Shown piece after piece: positions 2,366 through 9,992 of a stretch of DNA of 48,224 bases. Below the pieces are notes generated by a model. It did no database searches, was not told the DNA's origin, and saw only the letters and a program-made list of their open reading frames with translations. Position 1 is the stretch's first letter. Every line of letters begins with the position of its first letter. The DNA is from a virus. Made by a program: the position numbers and the translations under genes. The stretch is from the IMG/VR virus record IMGVR_UViG_3300045988_113942; one strand, given 5' to 3'.

Positions 2366-2841
2366 TCGATCAGTCCTTCCTCTTTCATGACACGGACCGG
2401 TTTCAGGTGATGCTTCATCACGTAGTGAAGAGCCTGGTCCATCTCTTTGTAGGTGAAGCCCTTGAATAGCTCGATCAGGTTCTGCAACAGGGCTTCTGCT
2501 TGCAGAAGGTTTTCTTTCGCAATAACGTGCTTCTCTTGCCAGATGCGCCAGGCGGCATCGACCTGACGCCATGCCGGCTCAATCTCACGCCTGAACTCTT
2601 CGCCTTCTTCGAGGTCGTAGGACAGGCGGTCAGCTAGAAGTAGAAGCCCAATCAAGTAAGCCCACGATTCATACGTGGGCTCCGTTCTGAAGGACTGCAG
2701 GTGAATGCGGTAGTCGAGCTCGATGCTGGCGGCTGCGCGGTCTGACAGTCCCTTGTTCGCCGAGATGTCGAGCATGTCGAGGTAGCCGATGCGGTGTTTC
2801 TTCGGGTTGTATTTCTTTGTCCGCTTTTTCTTGGCTTTCAT
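2362..2841 (-). CDS. Hypothetical protein
   Basis: MKAKKKRTKKYNPKK... (159 aa). The start at 2841 forms an ATGA overlap with the stop of 2838-3077. The longer track ORF (to 3210) was rejected. Confidence 0.55.
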   Translation of the reverse strand: MKAKKKRTKKYNPKKHRIGYLDMLDISANKGLSDRAAASIELDYRIHLQSFRTEPTYESWAYLIGLLLLADRLSYDLEEGEEFRREIEPAWRQVDAAWRIWQEKHVIAKENLLQAEALLQNLIELFKGFTYKEMDQALHYVMKHHLKPVRVMKEEGLIE

Positions 2842-3077
2842 TCCTTGTTTTCCTTGAAAATGCAGTGTTGCGGATCGCACGGTGCATTCGGGTTTTGGTA
2901 CTTGAGACCGAAACCAATTCCGACAAGAAGTGCCAGTGCGATGAGGATCGTCTTGTACCCGACGGTTATGCCTGACGTCGCGAGCGCCCAGACGATGAAG
3001 CAAGTGCCGGCTATGCGAAGGACGACGAAGATCGTCAGCATTACGATCTCCATCGCATTGATGGTTTGCGGGTTCAT
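2838..3077 (-). CDS. Small membrane protein (2 predicted TM helices)
   Basis: Hydrophobic runs IVMLTIFVVLRIAGTCFIVWALA and ILIALALLVGIGFGL. Confidence 0.55.
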   Translation of the reverse strand: MNPQTINAMEIVMLTIFVVLRIAGTCFIVWALATSGITVGYKTILIALALLVGIGFGLKYQNPNAPCDPQHCIFKENKE

Positions 3078-3304
3078 TCCTCGTCCTCCTTCTGTTTGAC
3101 GAAGTACTCAGTCGGAAAGAGCGTTGGCGCAATCTTGCCTTTGGCAGGGACGTGGAGGAGATAAAAGCCGCTAAGCGTACCTTTTGCGTGATACATGAAC
3201 GCTCGTCCATCGCATTCCGCTTCTGCTTCGCGGATCGCTTTTTGTGTTGTGCCCATCATGCAAGCGATTCGCTTGCGGATTTCCTTTTTCATCTTGACAG
3301 GCAT
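3074..3304 (-). CDS. Hypothetical protein
   Basis: 76-aa ORF in the translationally coupled series, ending KQKEDEE. Confidence 0.5.
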   Translation of the reverse strand: MPVKMKKEIRKRIACMMGTTQKAIREAEAECDGRAFMYHAKGTLSGFYLLHVPAKGKIAPTLFPTEYFVKQKEDEE

Positions 3305-3513
3305 TTCTCGTCCTTCTTCATAATCTGGATGCGGATCGAGCGATAGTCCTTCAGCGTCCCGACGCAGTAGGACAATCTACGGATGGCTTCGTCGATCTCC
3401 TCCACGGTCGGAGGAGTTCGACTCTTCCAGTCATTCCGACACGACGTTGCGCATACAGCTATGGCTTCCATCGCGAAGAGTGCACGGCGTCGATGCGCTT
3501 TTTCGTTCTTCAT
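3289..3513 (-). CDS. Hypothetical protein
   Basis: 74-aa ORF in operon context. Confidence 0.45.
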   Translation of the reverse strand: MKNEKAHRRRALFAMEAIAVCATSCRNDWKSRTPPTVEEIDEAIRRLSYCVGTLKDYRSIRIQIMKKDEKCLSR

Positions 3514-4061
3514 TCCTCGTCCTCCTTGATCTTCGATAGCAGGAACGTCTTGAGCACGAGTGCAGCATCGTCTTGCGAAACCTTGCTCACGTCATCCGTC
3601 ACTTTTTTGAAAAGAGGAGTGCCAGAGCCGTCAACGATGACGCACGTCCGAATTTTCTTATTCGTTGTGAAGCTATCATTCGTTGTGAAGTGGACTCCAT
3701 AACGCTTGCCGTTGACGTAGAACTCATAACCCCAGATGTTCTGAGTGCCATCGATCTCGCAGTTGAGGCGCTGCATCTGTACCCCTACCCACTCCGTTTG
3801 GGCCTTTTGGAAAGCCTTTGCGTCCTTCGCTGCCCGCAGGATCGAATTCGCGATTTGCTCGGCTTCGAAGTGCCACATGTCGGCGATATATCCCCCTTCT
3901 TTGACTAGGACTCTTACAGAGGCCCCGCTCCTTTCAATAAGCGCGAGAAAGTCACGATCCTCGTCAAGCGTGTTGTCGTAATAGTCCTTTGCCCACGGCA
4001 TGCCGACGATCTCGGCAATCGCGGCCTGAGCGGCCTCATCAATTTTTACTCTCTGGCTCAT
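3510..4061 (-). CDS. Hypothetical protein
   Basis: MSQRVKIDEAAQ... The ATG at 4061 forms an ATGA overlap with the upstream stop. Confidence 0.6.
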   Translation of the reverse strand: MSQRVKIDEAAQAAIAEIVGMPWAKDYYDNTLDEDRDFLALIERSGASVRVLVKEGGYIADMWHFEAEQIANSILRAAKDAKAFQKAQTEWVGVQMQRLNCEIDGTQNIWGYEFYVNGKRYGVHFTTNDSFTTNKKIRTCVIVDGSGTPLFKKVTDDVSKVSQDDAALVLKTFLLSKIKEDEE

Positions 4062-4828: not shown

Positions 4829-5680
4829 TTAATTGTTTTCGTTGACTGCGTCGTCGATATACTCGGCGTCGTTCACGTCGCCTTTCTCGATGAACTCTGC
4901 ATCGAGGAAGTCCTGGTCCGTCGTTGCCTCGCCTCGGTCAGTCTTCTCGTCGATCTCGACGGCGCGGACGGCTTCGATGCTCACCGGCAGGTACTTGAAC
5001 AGGCGGCGGATGACGGTCTTCTTGGCCATCTCCTCCCAGTGGGAGGACCACGGGCCGGAGTTGCCAGCCTTCGAGGAGGTGCGGACCTTCTCGATCTCTG
5101 CGCGGCTCATCACTTCGAACTGGACGCCACCGCCTTTGAGTTTGGCGACGGCATAGACGTGAGTGACCTTTCCTCGATCCGCAACCGACGCAGGAATGTG
5201 CTCGATGTCCGGGTCAAGGCCGAGCTTGTAGTTGAAGGTGTCCTGTTCGTGCACGCAGTAGGCTTGCAGGCTTACGATTTGGCCTGAACGACGTGCGAGG
5301 TCGATCATTCCTCGGTAGCCGATAATCAACTGCGCGTTCGGACGGCCTTGTTTGTCCTTTCCGTTGCCGAAGGGGAGTAGGTAGCAATGCCCGAGCGCGG
5401 AGCCGGGCTCAAGGCCAAGGGCGGCGCACTGGAGGACGGCGCCGTAGAAGGACTCAGGTGCGCACTTGAGAAGCGCCGGGGTCTTCCTGCACTCGGTCAT
5501 CACGATGCGCGTCAGACGGTCGGGCGTCATGCTCTTGGGCATGGCGAGTGCCATCTGCTTCTGGAAGTTCGGCTGTCGGATCATTCCGAGAAGCGTCGTC
5601 GGATTCTTTGCGGCTTGGACGACAGCAGTCTGTGCGGCGGCAGGAGCAACCTGCGATTTGAGAACGTCAGTAGTTGACAT
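4829..5680 (-). CDS. recT: RecT-family single-strand annealing recombinase
   Basis: RecT hallmarks: QCAALGLEPGS, HCYLLPFG, IIGYRGMIDLARRSG and KKTVIRRLFKYLP. Confidence 0.9.
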   Translation of the reverse strand: MSTTDVLKSQVAPAAAQTAVVQAAKNPTTLLGMIRQPNFQKQMALAMPKSMTPDRLTRIVMTECRKTPALLKCAPESFYGAVLQCAALGLEPGSALGHCYLLPFGNGKDKQGRPNAQLIIGYRGMIDLARRSGQIVSLQAYCVHEQDTFNYKLGLDPDIEHIPASVADRGKVTHVYAVAKLKGGGVQFEVMSRAEIEKVRTSSKAGNSGPWSSHWEEMAKKTVIRRLFKYLPVSIEAVRAVEIDEKTDRGEATTDQDFLDAEFIEKGDVNDAEYIDDAVNENN

Positions 5681-5691
5681 GAGTTTCCTTT

Positions 5692-6714
5692 TTAAGCGAG
5701 TCGAAGGATTCGGGTGGAGGTGGTCTGTACGAAATCTGCGTACAGGTCAGGGTGTTCTTTCTTGAATGCGGTGGAGGAGAAGCGAGAGCTGTTCTGCGCC
5801 TTGAACGTGACGGCCTTTTGACCGCCGATCGTGAGGCCTGTCTTTTCACCGATGGCGAGGATCACGCGAGAGGCGACGGCCTTCTCTTGCTCCTGAAGCT
5901 CTTTGATCTGCTCTTTGATCGTTCGGAGCTCGCCGATGTCGGCAGCTTCGTCGTTACTGGCTTCTTTCAACTCGCCGTTGTCTCGGGAATAGAGCTTCTT
6001 GATGTCGTCGACGTTGATGGGGTCGGGGGCGACGTCAGCAAGGACCTTCTCGAACCAGAAGGCGCGGCACTTTTCGACGATGGCTTTGATCACGTCCTCA
6101 TCGCGCTGCACTTCGTACATTCGGAAGTCCTGACCGCCGATGAGAACAGCGACATAGAACTTCTTGATGCCCGTCACCGCCATGTACCACTGAATCTGCG
6201 TTTCGTAGTAGAGCGGAATCTGGTGATCGGTGACGACCTTGCCGGACACGATCTCATCTTCCTGCGAAGGTCCCCACTTGTCAGCCATGAAGGCGTTGGC
6301 GGTCTTGCACTCGAGGCCGACGTCCGTCGAAAGCATGAGGCCGGTTTCGGCTGCCTTCGCGGGCTTGTTGACACGGACCGTTTTGGCAATCTGTTCGTTG
6401 ACGATTGCTCGGTCGATGTTGCCGCGCATCCACCCGTCTTCGCCGGTCGAAAGAAGGAAGTTCACGCGCTGAATCTTCATGCCAGTGCGCTTGCTGAACT
6501 CTTTCGCAACCACGTCTTCAAGCGTGGTTCCCCAGTAGGCAGCTTCACCTGCCGGTGAGCCTTTGGTCTTGCCGGTCTTCTCTTCCCACAAGCTCAGCGG
6601 CGTCTTGTAAGGGTTGAGGCCGAGGACGGTTGCAACGTCTGAACCGCCGATGCCCTTGCTACGTTCTTGTAGCCAGGCATCGCGTTCCATCTCTGCAGTC
6701 TTAATTGCTGCCAT
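5692..6714 (-). CDS. YqaJ/lambda-Exo-like recombination exonuclease (PD-(D/E)XK)
   Basis: WLQERSKGIGGSDVATVLGLNPYKTPLSLWEEKTG and GNIDRAIV...LECKT are YqaJ-type motifs. The gene is paired with recT. Confidence 0.9.
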   Translation of the reverse strand: MAAIKTAEMERDAWLQERSKGIGGSDVATVLGLNPYKTPLSLWEEKTGKTKGSPAGEAAYWGTTLEDVVAKEFSKRTGMKIQRVNFLLSTGEDGWMRGNIDRAIVNEQIAKTVRVNKPAKAAETGLMLSTDVGLECKTANAFMADKWGPSQEDEIVSGKVVTDHQIPLYYETQIQWYMAVTGIKKFYVAVLIGGQDFRMYEVQRDEDVIKAIVEKCRAFWFEKVLADVAPDPINVDDIKKLYSRDNGELKEASNDEAADIGELRTIKEQIKELQEQEKAVASRVILAIGEKTGLTIGGQKAVTFKAQNSSRFSSTAFKKEHPDLYADFVQTTSTRILRLA

Positions 6715-7185: not shown

Positions 7186-7325
7186 GCGAAGTACCTCAAC
7201 TCGAGAATGGTGATCATGGTTGACTCCAGGTCAGATAGCTGATCCAAGCACTCTCACCCGCATGGCTGTGTCAAGTGAGGAACGGGCAAGGGCGCTTGGA
7301 TCGGCTTTCTTGAGGCAATAAAAAA

Positions 7326-7348
7326 GCCCCCGGCGTGGTGCCGAGGGC
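7326..7348 (-). terminator. Rho-independent terminator (second of a tandem pair)
   Basis: Stem gcccccggc / gccgagggc with one mismatch. The minus-strand RNA ends ...gggggcttttttatt. Confidence 0.6.
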
Positions 7349-7360
7349 AGGAAAAGCAAA

Positions 7361-7388
7361 GCCCCGTCAGTTTTCACCGACGGGGCTG
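7361..7388 (-). terminator. Rho-independent terminator after the PemK-like gene (first of the tandem pair)
   Basis: Stem gccccgtc / gacggggc. The minus-strand tail is ctttgcttttcc. Confidence 0.6.
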
Positions 7389-7487
7389 AATGTCGCTACG
7401 GTCGATTGCAATCTCGGTTCCGTAGAGGCCTTCCATAGGAAAGGACTTTAAACGAGTTCGGCGAACCGAACTGTGCCACTTCTGAAA

Positions 7488-7958
7488 CTAACACAGAACG
7501 TCCCTAAAGTCAAATACCTGGAAGGTGCCGTTTTCAACTTTTACTGAACCCGTGACGCCGTATCCTGCGAGAACTCCCGTGAAGATTTCGCACATGGTGC
7601 CAGCGGGCAAAGTTAGATAGTTGTATTCGCGCTTACCATCCCCACCATCTTTACACAGGAGGGGGAGTGAAAGGCGCTTGTAGCTCAGTGTGTAAAGCAT
7701 GTCGCACTTAGCCCAACACTTCAAGCTAGGGTACGCAGGAGAAATAGGTGCACAAAGATTGATTTCAACGTTGTAAGAGCGTTTTACCATCGGCTCTGTT
7801 GTGCTCAAGGGTACGAGCGTGGCATATCCGAAGCGATTGCGGTCCTTTGGCGAAATGCACACCACGGGGCGTCGCTTGACCATTTCTGGCTTTTCGAAGT
7901 CTTTCGGGAAATCGCAGATCAAGATTTGCCCGATTGCCGGTTGGAAACGGATAGGCAT
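7488..7958 (-). CDS. PemK/MazF-superfamily protein (YifN-like) with no adjacent antitoxin ORF
   Basis: N-terminus AIGQILICDFPKDFEKPEMVKRRPVVCISPKDRNRFGYATLVPLSTTEP follows the PemK pattern G.I...DF....E..K.RP.V.IS....VPL(S/T). Confidence 0.6.
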   Translation of the reverse strand: MPIRFQPAIGQILICDFPKDFEKPEMVKRRPVVCISPKDRNRFGYATLVPLSTTEPMVKRSYNVEINLCAPISPAYPSLKCWAKCDMLYTLSYKRLSLPLLCKDGGDGKREYNYLTLPAGTMCEIFTGVLAGYGVTGSVKVENGTFQVFDFRDVLC

Positions 7959-8356
7959 GCAAATTTATCCTTGGCAAAGTGAGATGTCAGCAATTGTACG
8001 TGAAAGCCCATCGAAGCGTCCTTGGTAAAGACGCTTCGATCGGCTTTCACACGAGACTCGGGTGTGCTCCTGCCGGCTGCTTGATCTTGCGATCCGTACC
8101 CCGGAGGCCCCTACGCGGGCGGCTGTGCCATCCCGTGCTAGCTACATGCAGGTCGTCGTAGCTCGCTCGCACTCGCCCGGCTGCCGTGCCGAGGTCTTAG
8201 CGGTCCGGGACCCTTCCTCCCTTTGCTCCTCACAGCCGGCGGGTTAGGCCATTTGTGGAGAGGTTGCGTCTATTCAAGCGCTCTCACGTGTTGCTCTTTG
8301 CAGGTGCCCGCAACAGCGCTTGAATAGACCGCCTGAACAACAGGCGGAGAATTCGT
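7959..8356 (-). ncRNA. Candidate structured untranslated RNA / long 5' leader of the PemK-like gene
   Basis: About 400 bp with no ORF of 60 aa or more on the transcribed (minus) strand. The region is GC-rich and contains a 20-bp hairpin (8000-8050), a 15-bp perfect inverted repeat (8268-8282 / 8315-8329) and a 7-bp hairpin (8331-8349). Confidence 0.35.
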
Positions 8357-8515
8357 TCACTTAAGAATCGTGAGAACCAGTACGGCAATGGCCGGGATGG
8401 CGAGCATCGCGCCGAAGAACAGGTTGACGCCGAACTCGATCGTGTCTTCATCCGTGAGCGTGCGCGGGTCGGCGCTGGGCGTCGAAGCGAAGAAGAAGTT
8501 GGCGAGCTTGGACAT
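8357..8515 (-). CDS. Small membrane protein (52 aa, below the ORF-track cutoff)
   Basis: Hand translation gives MSKLANFFFASTPSADPRTLTDEDTIEFGVNLFFGAMLAIPAIAVLVLTILK. AGGAG lies upstream of the ATG at 8515. Confidence 0.4.
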   Translation of the reverse strand: MSKLANFFFASTPSADPRTLTDEDTIEFGVNLFFGAMLAIPAIAVLVLTILK

Positions 8516-8524
8516 GGTTGACTC

Positions 8525-8770
8525 CTAGAGAGACTGGAGAATCTGGTTGACGTTGCGGGCGACCTGCGAGTACTTCTGAGTGATCGTCCTTTGTGCCCTG
8601 ATTGAGGGCGTCGTGAGCATGTAGAACGTGAGCTCCTGTGCGGCCGTGAAGTCCGCCATTGTGGCGACCAGCACGTCGTGGACGAGGCATGCGTCGCGGC
8701 CGAGGCATGCGTCGCGGCCGAGGCGGTGAAGGCGGATGGCCAGCACTTGATCGAACTCGGCGGCCTTCAT
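8525..8770 (-). CDS. Hypothetical protein containing an in-frame 18-bp tandem repeat
   Basis: 81-aa ORF; LGRDAC occurs twice, encoded by 8683-8718. Confidence 0.45.
   Translation of the reverse strand: MKAAEFDQVLAIRLHRLGRDACLGRDACLVHDVLVATMADFTAAQELTFYMLTTPSIRAQRTITQKYSQVARNVNQILQSL
8683..8724. repeat. 18-bp tandem repeat cgaggcatgcgtcgcggc, 2.3 copies
   Basis: Direct read: 8683-8700 equals 8701-8718, followed by a partial third copy. Confidence 0.9.
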
Positions 8771-9278: not shown

Positions 9279-9992
9279 TTAGAGCCAGCTACCGCCGGAG
9301 CGGTCGCGGACGCGGCCGATGAGGTGGAATGTCTGCATGTCGGCGCCGGAAATCGTCTCGTCGGGCACCTCCGGATTGAGCGACTGGATGAGCAGTCCAT
9401 TGATGAGGGAGCGCAGGACCTTGACCCTCATCTTGCCGTGAATCATGAATACGTAGACCTTGCCACTGATGATGTCGGTCGGCGTGCAGTCCACAAGGAT
9501 CTTGTCGCCGTCCCACAGGTAGGGCTCCATGCTGTCGCCGTGGACCTCGAAGGTCTTGCAGTTCTCGGGGTTGATCTGGTGAAGCTGAAACCACGAGCGG
9601 GGCTTGATGAAGCCGCATTCCTTGCCGTCAACTTCTTCAAAGACGGGGTTTTCGTTGCCGGGGCCAGCAGATGCTTGCACATGGTACTGAGGGATCACGA
9701 TGTAGTTAGGGTCTGGGAGCGCCGCGCCTTCGCCTGTGTCCTCATAGACCTGTACCGAGGTCGAGCGCATGGCGCCGATGCCTTCAGCGAGCCAGGACGC
9801 ATTGACGCCGAGGTACTCGGCTGCGCGTAGGGCGTGCTTGTAGTTGATTGCCTTCGTCTTTCCCGAGAACCAGTCCGTCATGGATGACGGACTCAGACCG
9901 CAGTGCTTTGCGAGGCCAGCCTTGTTCTTGTAAGGGGCGGTCAACTGGGCGGCCTCAAGAGCTTCCGCCAATCGTGTCGAGAGCGTGCTCAT
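9279..9992 (-). CDS. CI/LexA-like repressor (XRE HTH plus S24 peptidase domain)
   Basis: N-terminal HTH (KAGLAKHCGLSPSSMTDWFSGK). C-terminal S24 motifs VHGDSMEP and a later Lys (GKMRVKVL). Divergent from the cro-like gene. Confidence 0.9.
   Translation of the reverse strand: MSTLSTRLAEALEAAQLTAPYKNKAGLAKHCGLSPSSMTDWFSGKTKAINYKHALRAAEYLGVNASWLAEGIGAMRSTSVQVYEDTGEGAALPDPNYIVIPQYHVQASAGPGNENPVFEEVDGKECGFIKPRSWFQLHQINPENCKTFEVHGDSMEPYLWDGDKILVDCTPTDIISGKVYVFMIHGKMRVKVLRSLINGLLIQSLNPEVPDETISGADMQTFHLIGRVRDRSGGSWL

Follow-up and report, generated by a model that had tools for sequence, protein, structure and literature searches.

A phage-borne PemK/MazF-type gene and the structured small RNA beside it: a candidate RNA-antitoxin cassette

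Does a PemK/MazF-type toxin gene with no antitoxin gene at its side really stand alone? The question is posed by a reading frame at positions 7488–7958 (minus strand) of a 48,224-nucleotide (nt) viral DNA, IMG/VR record IMGVR_UViG_3300045988_113942, the whole of which we call the window. The initial annotation took this gene to be an orphan in the slot between the immunity region and the recombination genes. It is flanked, as described, by a CI-like repressor gene and by RecE/RecT-like genes (Table 1), and a conserved small RNA (sRNA) gene lies directly downstream. The PemK gene is therefore not an orphan: homologous loci have a conserved adjacent partner, and it is an RNA gene. That gene and RNA constitute a genuine module is, in our judgment, almost certain, and the reading that we favor is that the RNA is an antitoxin acting on the PemK/MazF protein.

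The PemK/MazF-fold protein and the structure of the RNA

The assignment of the 156-residue product to the PemK/MazF proteins is solid, because Pfam, alignment, Protein Data Bank (PDB) profile, AlphaFold2 and family-search results all point to it. The protein matches PF02452 (PemK_toxin) over residues 10–96 (E = 2.8e-11; 44 bits, the gathering score being 23.1), and among PHROG families it matches phrog_1936 ('MazF-like growth inhibitor') and the unannotated phrog_15698; PADLOC gave no match for it. Among 5.8 billion proteins searched there are 54 relatives, every one with PF02452; two sources name them 'YifN (PemK superfamily)' or 'type II TA system PemK/MazF family toxin' (TA, toxin–antitoxin). 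Alignment of 38 diverse homologues identifies K28, R30, P50, L51, S52, T53, W82, K84 and R95 as invariant and PEMVKRRPVV, VPLSTTEP and CWAKCDMLYT as signature motifs of the subfamily, and in a profile search of PDB sequences R30 and T53 pair with R29 and T52 of Escherichia coli MazF, which, from established MazF biochemistry, we take to be catalytic residues. An AlphaFold2 model (predicted local distance difference test score 92.3, predicted template-modeling [TM] score 0.87) was compared with known structures using Foldseek; the 50 best PDB matches are all MazF or MoxT (TM to target 0.70–0.83, probability 1.00), and the viral structures matched are 'PemK-like' proteins; the fold is the SH3-like barrel of the MazF/Kid/CcdB type. 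Beyond the MazF C-terminal helix, proteins of the phage clade have an extension of about 25 residues with a β-hairpin (residues ~138–149). The initial annotation had recognized a PemK/MazF pattern near the N terminus and proposed a hidden Markov model search and a structure prediction as checks; the PF02452 score above cut-off, the R30/T53 alignment and the MazF fold obtained from AlphaFold2 and Foldseek bear it out. The protein, a member of the YifN-like subfamily, is probably a true endoribonuclease with the MazF/PemK fold, its ribonuclease (RNase) activity being predicted from sequence and model. The subfamily is large, with 790 clusters (50% identity) at E≤1e-10 when 1.84 billion cluster representatives were searched with a profile, and a GTDB scan using one genome per species yielded 558 PemK loci, in which Pseudomonadota predominate.

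The clue to the RNA was that short 'open reading frames' (ORFs) just downstream of PemK genes shared odd peptide motifs. Reading by eye across relatives places the element 10–110 nt past the PemK stop codon in almost every locus. Its consensus begins with a helix P1 of the form CCCG-CUCU-GC...GC-AU-CGGG, followed by a junction, UUAAG(U/A)CC, a helix P2 closed by CC/GG, and a helix P3 whose inner stem exposes an 8-nt loop, GAUnnCAA (GAUUGCAA or GAUAACAA); a GC-rich terminator and a U-tract complete it. We built a covariance model, R1, for this RNA and aligned 71 hits, 65 of them distinct. In this alignment 94.5% of cells are paired, as compared with 38–58% when the 3' partners are slid by 1–3 columns, and compensatory changes are present in 13 of the 15 pairs, with a covariation score of 0.73 against 0.05–0.16 for the slid controls. 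As the R1 alignment was itself shaped by the model, the cleaner control comes from 21 sequences aligned independently with MAFFT; RNAalifold predicted P2 and P3 from these, with compensatory double changes at 9/15 pairs. Covariation extends to the outer helix of P1, which in 56 loci is arranged around a conserved internal loop, C(U)CU/AU (CCCG/CGGG 30, GCGG/CCGC 11, CCUG/CAGG 6, GUGG/CCAC 3 and GGGG/CCCC 3). The sRNA structure is real, and RNAfold folds the window's own copy as in the consensus, with P1, P2, P3 and terminator (z = -4.55 relative to shuffled sequences).

The P3 loop region of the window, GAUUGCAAUC (7406–7415, minus strand), is a perfect palindrome, and it is present in most sRNA copies of the gamma-, beta- and deltaproteobacterial type; such a palindrome would permit loop–loop (kissing) dimerization of two sRNAs. 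It is not kept in the alphaproteobacterial variants, which have GAUAACAA. The initial annotation had described the sequence downstream of the PemK gene as terminators, and two terminator-like hairpins do lie there (7387..7360 and 7348..7326), although the first of these is the 3' end of the conserved sRNA gene.

Pairing of gene and RNA, and the promoter of the RNA

We asked whether a protein partner accompanies the PemK gene in 87 loci, comprising seven phage contigs (L001–L007) and 80 genome loci, by all-against-all clustering of every ORF lying within 1.2 kb of the gene. No conserved flanking protein family emerged from these loci, the only clusters being shadow ORFs of PemK itself and neighbors particular to one phage, and the small ORFs adjoining the gene in the window have no PADLOC, PHROG or other family match. 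The statement that no small protein antitoxin adjoins the gene thus holds both for the window and, as regards a conserved one, for the 87 related loci. A membrane-type ORF of 52 residues upstream was considered as an antitoxin and rejected, as it is not conserved in two of the related phages (L002 and L004). Four bacterial loci (L053, L059, L063 and L082) have an XRE-type helix-turn-helix (HTH) ORF of 76–104 residues that ends 0–4 nt before the PemK start and is translationally coupled to it, with a conserved C terminus, AGVEFIPENGGGAGVRLKK. These four loci carry the downstream sRNA too, and are perhaps three-component variants. With no protein antitoxin conserved at the loci compared, the system falls outside the type II definition.

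In contrast to this lack of a protein partner, the RNA is found beside the gene with great regularity. A search of the whole 48-kb window with R1 gives a single match, at 7480..7376 (minus strand; 66.7 bits, E = 1.4e-16, the E-values of R1 being rough owing to a shortened model calibration). Among the 87 genome and prophage loci, 71 have an R1 match (E≤0.1), each right at the gene and none elsewhere in 829 kb, and a regular expression built on two motifs, with a background of 0.9% of random windows, locates the RNA in 12 more, for a total of about 83/87; one exception (L009) ends at a contig edge, and two others (L047 and L069) have a divergent variant. Of 80 viral PemK loci, 57 have an R1 match and about 18 more have alphaproteobacterial-type variants, giving about 75/79; these viral variants and a few of the genome variants were recognized by eye or by the regular expression and not by R1. 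The viral exceptions are a locus at a contig end (L245) and three divergent proteins without detectable RNA (L296, L309 and L316). In one locus (L313) a weak R1 match is located upstream of the PemK gene instead.

In the reciprocal search, 49 viral contigs were found through the RNA pattern, and PemK is just upstream in 33, the contig edge intervenes in 4, and in 12 there is room for a PemK gene but none is present, such that 12 of the 45 evaluable viral RNA loci lack the gene (L089, L092, L094, L095, L106, L109, L113, L117, L120, L129, L132 and L136). One of these, L117, has a precise deletion of PemK that retains the last ~24 nt of the gene together with the RNA and its promoter (TTGACT-17-TAGATT); L131 has a partial deletion, with the last 20 codons left and both sRNA and promoter retained; and in L132 and L113, which are relatives of the phage studied here, the RNA follows an unrelated 87-codon gene. 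RNA-only loci are thus common, whereas loci having the protein but no detectable RNA are rare (L296, L309, L316 and the variant loci L047 and L069), which is the asymmetry that toxin/antitoxin logic predicts, and the RNA-only loci may be antitoxin-only counter-defense genes.

At the nucleotide level, neither the GenBank phage set nor E. coli genomes gave a megablast or blastn match. At the protein level the only matches in the GenBank phage set are 11 Vibrio cyclitrophicus tectivirus-like (Vinavirales) elements, in which a LexA/S24 repressor gene is followed 20 nt on by PemK at the end of the element; Vibrio phage 10N.237.312.D05_PE001 (PQ189291.1, positions 2369–3647; L137) is representative. 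A weak but architecturally matching sRNA-like hit is situated about 110 nt downstream of PemK in these elements, and the arrangement suggests that PemK is co-expressed with the repressor in the carrier state. Many of the loci are from metagenomic bins of uncertain taxonomy, and the nearest relatives come from gut Sutterellaceae-type bins, which is just a hint at the host.

A tight, one-to-one pairing of gene and RNA would also be seen if the two products formed a dedicated RNA–protein particle, with the MazF-fold protein processing, stabilizing or chaperoning an sRNA effector (one that regulates host or phage genes, for example) and being non-toxic at native levels. The RNA exists, and presumably functions, without the protein in the 12 RNA-only contigs, its strongly conserved single-stranded motifs could bind targets or protein, and the family is widespread, many Alphaproteobacteria having one chromosomal copy, all of which a particle could accommodate. 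However, the Arg and Thr that are catalytic in MazF RNases are unchanged throughout the alignment, the module has the patchy distribution and mobility typical of selfish or defense cassettes, and the predominance of RNA-only over protein-only loci is a better fit to an antitoxin and its toxin; we regard the particle as rather improbable.

The RNA appears to have a promoter of its own. A predicted sigma-70 promoter overlaps the end of the PemK gene, with a -10 that includes the stop codon TAG and a -35 within the codons for the C-terminal 'FDF'; the segment TTTGACTTT (7500–7513, minus strand) both encodes F-D-F and holds the -35. Because the tail codons overlap the sRNA promoter, part of the conservation of the C-terminal tail of phage-clade proteins, ...VFDF(R/Q)D(V/I)L-stop, may reflect promoter constraint. 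Most loci have a near-consensus sigma-70 promoter (TTGACA or TTGACT, 17 nt, TATAAT-like) directly upstream of the RNA, with the -35 often inside the last PemK codons, and of 64 distinct loci, 56% have a match at ≥9/12 promoter positions just ahead of the RNA, as compared with 1.3% of random windows. In two loci (L044 and L021) the RNA is on the opposite strand and convergent with the PemK gene, and the L044 sequence was inspected by eye as well. This placement, the retention of the promoter and survival of the RNA as a stand-alone gene show that it is not purely a 3' untranslated region (3' UTR) element, and its arrangement in these sequences points to an independent gene that would act in trans.

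An alternative explanation is that the downstream element acts in cis, as a 3' UTR, terminator or stability element, or pairs with PemK mRNA as a type I-like RNA would, and does not bind the protein. In the window the RNA starts about 10 nt past the stop codon and ends in a terminator, such that read-through PemK transcripts would carry it as a 3' UTR, and the window's own -10 is weak. This interpretation is difficult to reconcile with the conserved sigma-70 promoter that most loci have between the RNA and the end of the ORF, with the opposite-strand copies, or with the 12 phage contigs in which the RNA stands alone after other genes. We also compared cognate and non-cognate pairs of sRNA and mRNA. 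Duplexes with the cognate translation-initiation region have a mean energy of -39.6, against -36.9 for non-cognate ones (cognate rank 16/40), and for the P3 loop and the whole cognate mRNA the values are -11.8 and -11.5 (rank 18.5/36); complementarity to the cognate mRNA is no better than to the others, and an antisense, type I-like mechanism was rejected. The type I definition does not apply, since there is no antisense pairing, and the loop sequences are conserved across phyla, unlike those of an antisense RNA that tracks its own mRNA. Action in cis or on the mRNA is in our view distinctly unlikely.

Searches for RNAs of known kinds gave little. There are no ToxI-like tandem repeats in 7200..8500, and no transfer RNA or transfer-messenger RNA was found downstream of the PemK gene. 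Neither the window nor any of 17 loci gave an Rfam hit at the gathering score, and at E≤10 Rfam 15 gave chance-level matches alone (terminator-like sRNAs, sX12, abiF and others) for the region and two representative loci. A description of the YifN/PemK–sRNA pair, or of a second structured RNA of the window (element X, below), was not found in the full-text literature, a coverage that leaves subscription-only papers outside.

Table 1. Features of the PemK locus and its surroundings in the window.
Feature	Position	Strand	Remarks
PemK coding sequence	7488..7958	-	156 aa (amino acids); PemK/MazF fold, YifN-like subfamily
Shine-Dalgarno sequence of PemK gene	7972..7968	-	AAGGA, 9 nt ahead of ATG
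Predicted sigma-70 promoter of sRNA	7485..7513	-	-35 TTGACT 7513-7508, 17-nt spacer, -10 TAGTTT 7490-7485
PemK-associated structured sRNA gene	about 7479..7351	-	~130 nt; starts ~10 nt past PemK stop
sRNA helix P1	7472-7466/7461-7455	-	
sRNA junction motif	7448-7443	-	AAGUCC
sRNA helix P2	7444-7439/7434-7429	-	
sRNA helix P3	7425-7420/7401-7396	-	inner 3-bp stem
Conserved P3 loop	7413-7406	-	8 nt, GAUUGCAA
sRNA intrinsic terminator	7387-7360	-	followed by U-tract
Second terminator-like hairpin and T-run	7326..7348	-	from terminator scan; just past sRNA terminator
PemK and sRNA cassette	7310..8029	-	~720 bp; moron-like insertion
Direct repeat, upstream copy	8048-8030		GAAAGCCGATCGAAGCGTC; 19 bp, flanks cassette, identical to other copy at 17/19 positions
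Direct repeat, downstream copy	7309-7291		GAAAGCCGATCCAAGCGCC; 19 bp, flanks cassette
24-bp hairpin	8050-8000	-	end of element X in the window; at cassette junction
Element X	about 8210..8000	-	structured leader-type RNA element, apart from PemK/sRNA module
Element X, 5' domain			GACCGCnAAGACC, hairpin with loop CGGCA, GCGAGUGCGAG, hairpin with loop ACGACCUG
Perfect 15-bp inverted repeat	8268-8282/8315-8329	-	32-nt loop, no T-run
Short GC hairpin	8330-8350	-	CCGCCUG-UUGUU-CAGGCGG; immediately after 52-aa ORF, ahead of 15-bp repeat
Stretch without convincing ORFs	7959..8356		398 bp, upstream of PemK gene
Membrane-type ORF	8357..8515		52 aa, upstream of PemK gene
CI/LexA-type S24 repressor gene	9279..9992	-	neighbor of PemK gene
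RecE/YqaJ-like exonuclease gene	5692..6714	-	neighbor of PemK gene
RecT-like gene	4829..5680	-	neighbor of PemK gene

The cassette, its site and the upstream region

A sister contig (L178) provides the empty site. It corresponds to window positions 8207..8024 (93%) and then directly to 7309..7242 (87%), and the PemK–sRNA cassette is absent. Direct repeats of 19 bp flank the cassette, GC content is 0.49–0.52 within it as opposed to 0.55–0.64 in the flanks, and two closer relatives in other contexts (L244 and L245) have just ~55 nt of common sequence upstream of the ATG. PemK, sRNA and terminator are thus a discrete, mobile, moron-like unit, and absence from the sister phage, two terminators of its own and deviant composition are the attributes of a moron. 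The wider distribution is patchy, the module being present in lambdoid and tectivirus-like phages, beside integrases, and as a discrete insertion.

How PemK itself is transcribed is less evident from the cassette. The ~70 nt of the cassette that precede the ATG contain no convincing promoter, and nothing convincing is conserved over the ~55 nt that L244 and L245 have in common with the window. A site listed by the promoter scan, CTGACA-17-TAAATT (7990..7962), was rejected; it falls between the Shine-Dalgarno sequence and the start codon, and its transcript would begin within the ORF. Because the cassette has no convincing PemK promoter of its own, the gene may be read from the operon at the insertion site, with the sRNA using its own promoter; the host operon may be the CI-side or early-left transcription unit here and the repressor gene in the Vibrio elements.

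The region upstream of the gene is free of convincing ORFs for about 400 bp (398 bp, 7959..8356), as had been noted, and the initial annotation had suggested testing its effect on toxicity. It folds strongly (z = -5.3), owing to two hairpins after the 52-codon ORF, a structured element that we call element X, and, where the cassette joins, the 24-bp hairpin. The AT-rich phages L002–L006 share the conserved element X, which has compensatory changes in its first hairpin and is also present in seven contigs that have neither PemK nor the sRNA (L172, L178, L183, L190, L195, L201 and L217). In three of these (L201, L172 and L195) a ribosome-binding site and ATG come directly after it, and in L004 it comes after a region beside CI that resembles a promoter/operator. 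Some phages have it immediately ahead of the first early-left gene or behind a promoter close to CI. Neither Rfam nor R1 matches element X. Its first ~30 nt (CGCnAAGACC plus hairpin) loosely resemble the sRNA junction and P2, and a loose pattern scan of viral contigs returned mostly chance hits in coding DNA. Element X looks like an early-left operon leader RNA independent of the module, and may be an antitermination or leader RNA. The upstream 400 bp were rejected as an antitoxin or second sRNA copy, since R1 finds no second copy and element X occurs without PemK and sRNA; the partner does not lie there.

It is very improbable that the gene is a true orphan toxin, serving host shut-off or competitor exclusion on induction and neutralized by nothing, by the upstream 400 bp or by a distal phage factor: it does lack a protein antitoxin and a convincing promoter of its own, it is oriented with the early-left operon, and the upstream gap does hold a structured RNA, but an adjoining sRNA partner is conserved in nearly all relatives, and element X is missing at most PemK loci, is present without PemK and lies outside the inserted cassette.

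Further upstream, an 81-codon ORF (8525..8770, minus strand) contains an 18-bp tandem duplication (CGTCGTGGACGAGGCATG / CGTCGCGGCCGAGGCATG, window 8674–8709) that encodes a repeated 'GRDACL'. The near-identical contig L001 has a 75-codon ORF at this place, a length polymorphism of six codons.

An RNA-antitoxin reading and its place among known systems

We propose that the sRNA is an antitoxin acting on the PemK/MazF protein in a type III-like cassette, and assign this reading a probability of roughly 0.6. It is suggested by the combination of a structured RNA, its invariant single-stranded motifs, an adjoining RNase gene, and the asymmetry between common RNA-only and rare protein-only loci; from these we infer toxicity, RNA–protein binding, neutralization, trigger and biological role. 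The sRNA would be transcribed from its own constitutive-type sigma-70 promoter overlapping the end of the toxin ORF and would end at its own terminator. It would bind the RNase, presumably a dimer, through the AAGUCC junction and the GAUnnCAA loop, and the bound RNase would be held inactive, in the way that ToxN and AbiF are by the antitoxin RNAs of type III systems. Were the sRNA to become scarce compared with the protein, RNase left unbound would attack RNA of the cell or of a phage. Possible triggers include an invading phage that shuts transcription off, the prophage being lost, or a surge in toxin transcription driven by the early-left operon. In the phage studied here the cassette would be a horizontally acquired moron in the early-left region, and its role is most likely exclusion, abortive infection or prophage addiction. 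A toxin neutralized by RNA was among the roles listed in the initial annotation and is the one now favored, whereas an un-neutralized orphan used for shut-off or exclusion is disfavored by the adjacent conserved sRNA.

Several observations weigh against an RNA antitoxin. The RNA is downstream, has its own promoter and contains no tandem repeats, unlike those of classical type III systems. In the window itself, P1 is a phage-type variant without the canonical C(U)CU/AU internal loop, and the -10, TAGTTT, is weak enough that a generic promoter scan did not list it. A few divergent family members have no detectable RNA beside them, and in the four bacterial loci with a coupled XRE-type HTH ORF that protein could be an antitoxin or regulator. 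The single chromosomal copies in many Alphaproteobacteria also fit a housekeeping RNA–protein particle.

The protein has much in common with the type II toxins MazF and PemK (Kid), such as E. coli MazF, Bacillus subtilis MazF/YdcE and Staphylococcus aureus MazF, including PF02452, a fold with the C-terminal helix, and core size. It differs in having its own signature motifs and, in the phage clade, the C-terminal extension, and in that a conserved downstream sRNA gene takes the place of an upstream MazE/PemI-type gene.

The type III systems ToxIN, CptIN and TenpIN resemble the module in pairing an endoribonuclease toxin with an adjacent non-coding RNA gene conserved with it. ToxN has a Kid/MazF-like fold, and type III systems are phage- and plasmid-borne. 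In ToxIN-type systems the antitoxin consists of tandem 34–36-nt repeats located upstream of the toxin gene; the two share an operon that has an internal terminator, and the toxin processes the antitoxin RNA. The present module, in contrast, has a single three-helix fold of ~100 nt located downstream with its own promoter and without tandem repeats, and the toxin is PF02452 proper and not of the ToxN/AbiQ families. Phages reportedly carry antitoxin-RNA look-alikes to escape type III systems, the pseudo-ToxI of PhiTE (Blower et al. 2012) being the example, and the RNA-only phage contigs described here are analogous to these.

AbiF–AbiFr, a type III TA system and ancestor of Cas13, is the nearest functional analogue, in that one structured non-coding RNA goes with an RNase, a relationship that is proposed here from sequence. 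It differs in that AbiF is a HEPN protein without the MazF fold, and its RNA belongs to another family (Rfam abiF, RF03085, scores 15.6 bits, which is chance level). The Rfam 'pemK' motif, which is associated with pemK genes, is a 5' UTR motif; the element described here is 3' of the gene and would be independently transcribed, and no Rfam 15 family matches it at threshold. We use the general type III definition as summarized in PMC12737573, where AbiF–AbiFr is described as a structured non-coding RNA with an RNase toxin whose dimer binds structured RNAs; it is also phage- or prophage-encoded (PMC12373285).

A broader proposition, for which we put the odds at about even, is that YifN-like PemK/MazF proteins and the three-helix sRNA make up a previously undescribed and widespread class of RNA-antitoxin systems, with a lone, independently transcribed sRNA instead of MazE or ToxI repeats, and that phages carry either the whole module, for exclusion or addiction, or the sRNA alone, as counter-defense against PemK-armed hosts or rival prophages. 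The proposed class would span ~790 protein clusters (50% identity) and the genomes of >550 bacterial species, together with phages of the lambdoid and tectivirus-like kinds.

Annotation routinely treats solitary PemK/MazF genes as type II toxins whose antitoxin is missing; the subfamily in question is 'YifN' of the COG database. If the proposition is correct, a subfamily of such apparently solitary toxins would be explained by an RNA partner that is invisible to protein-centered annotation, and the MazF family proper would be linked to type III-like RNA control in a new architecture, with the RNA downstream, under its own promoter and free of repeats. The 720-bp cassette is compact enough for direct testing. 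The RNA-only phage loci suggest a natural counter-defense, which would bear on phage–host arms races and on the engineering of phages or RNase switches.

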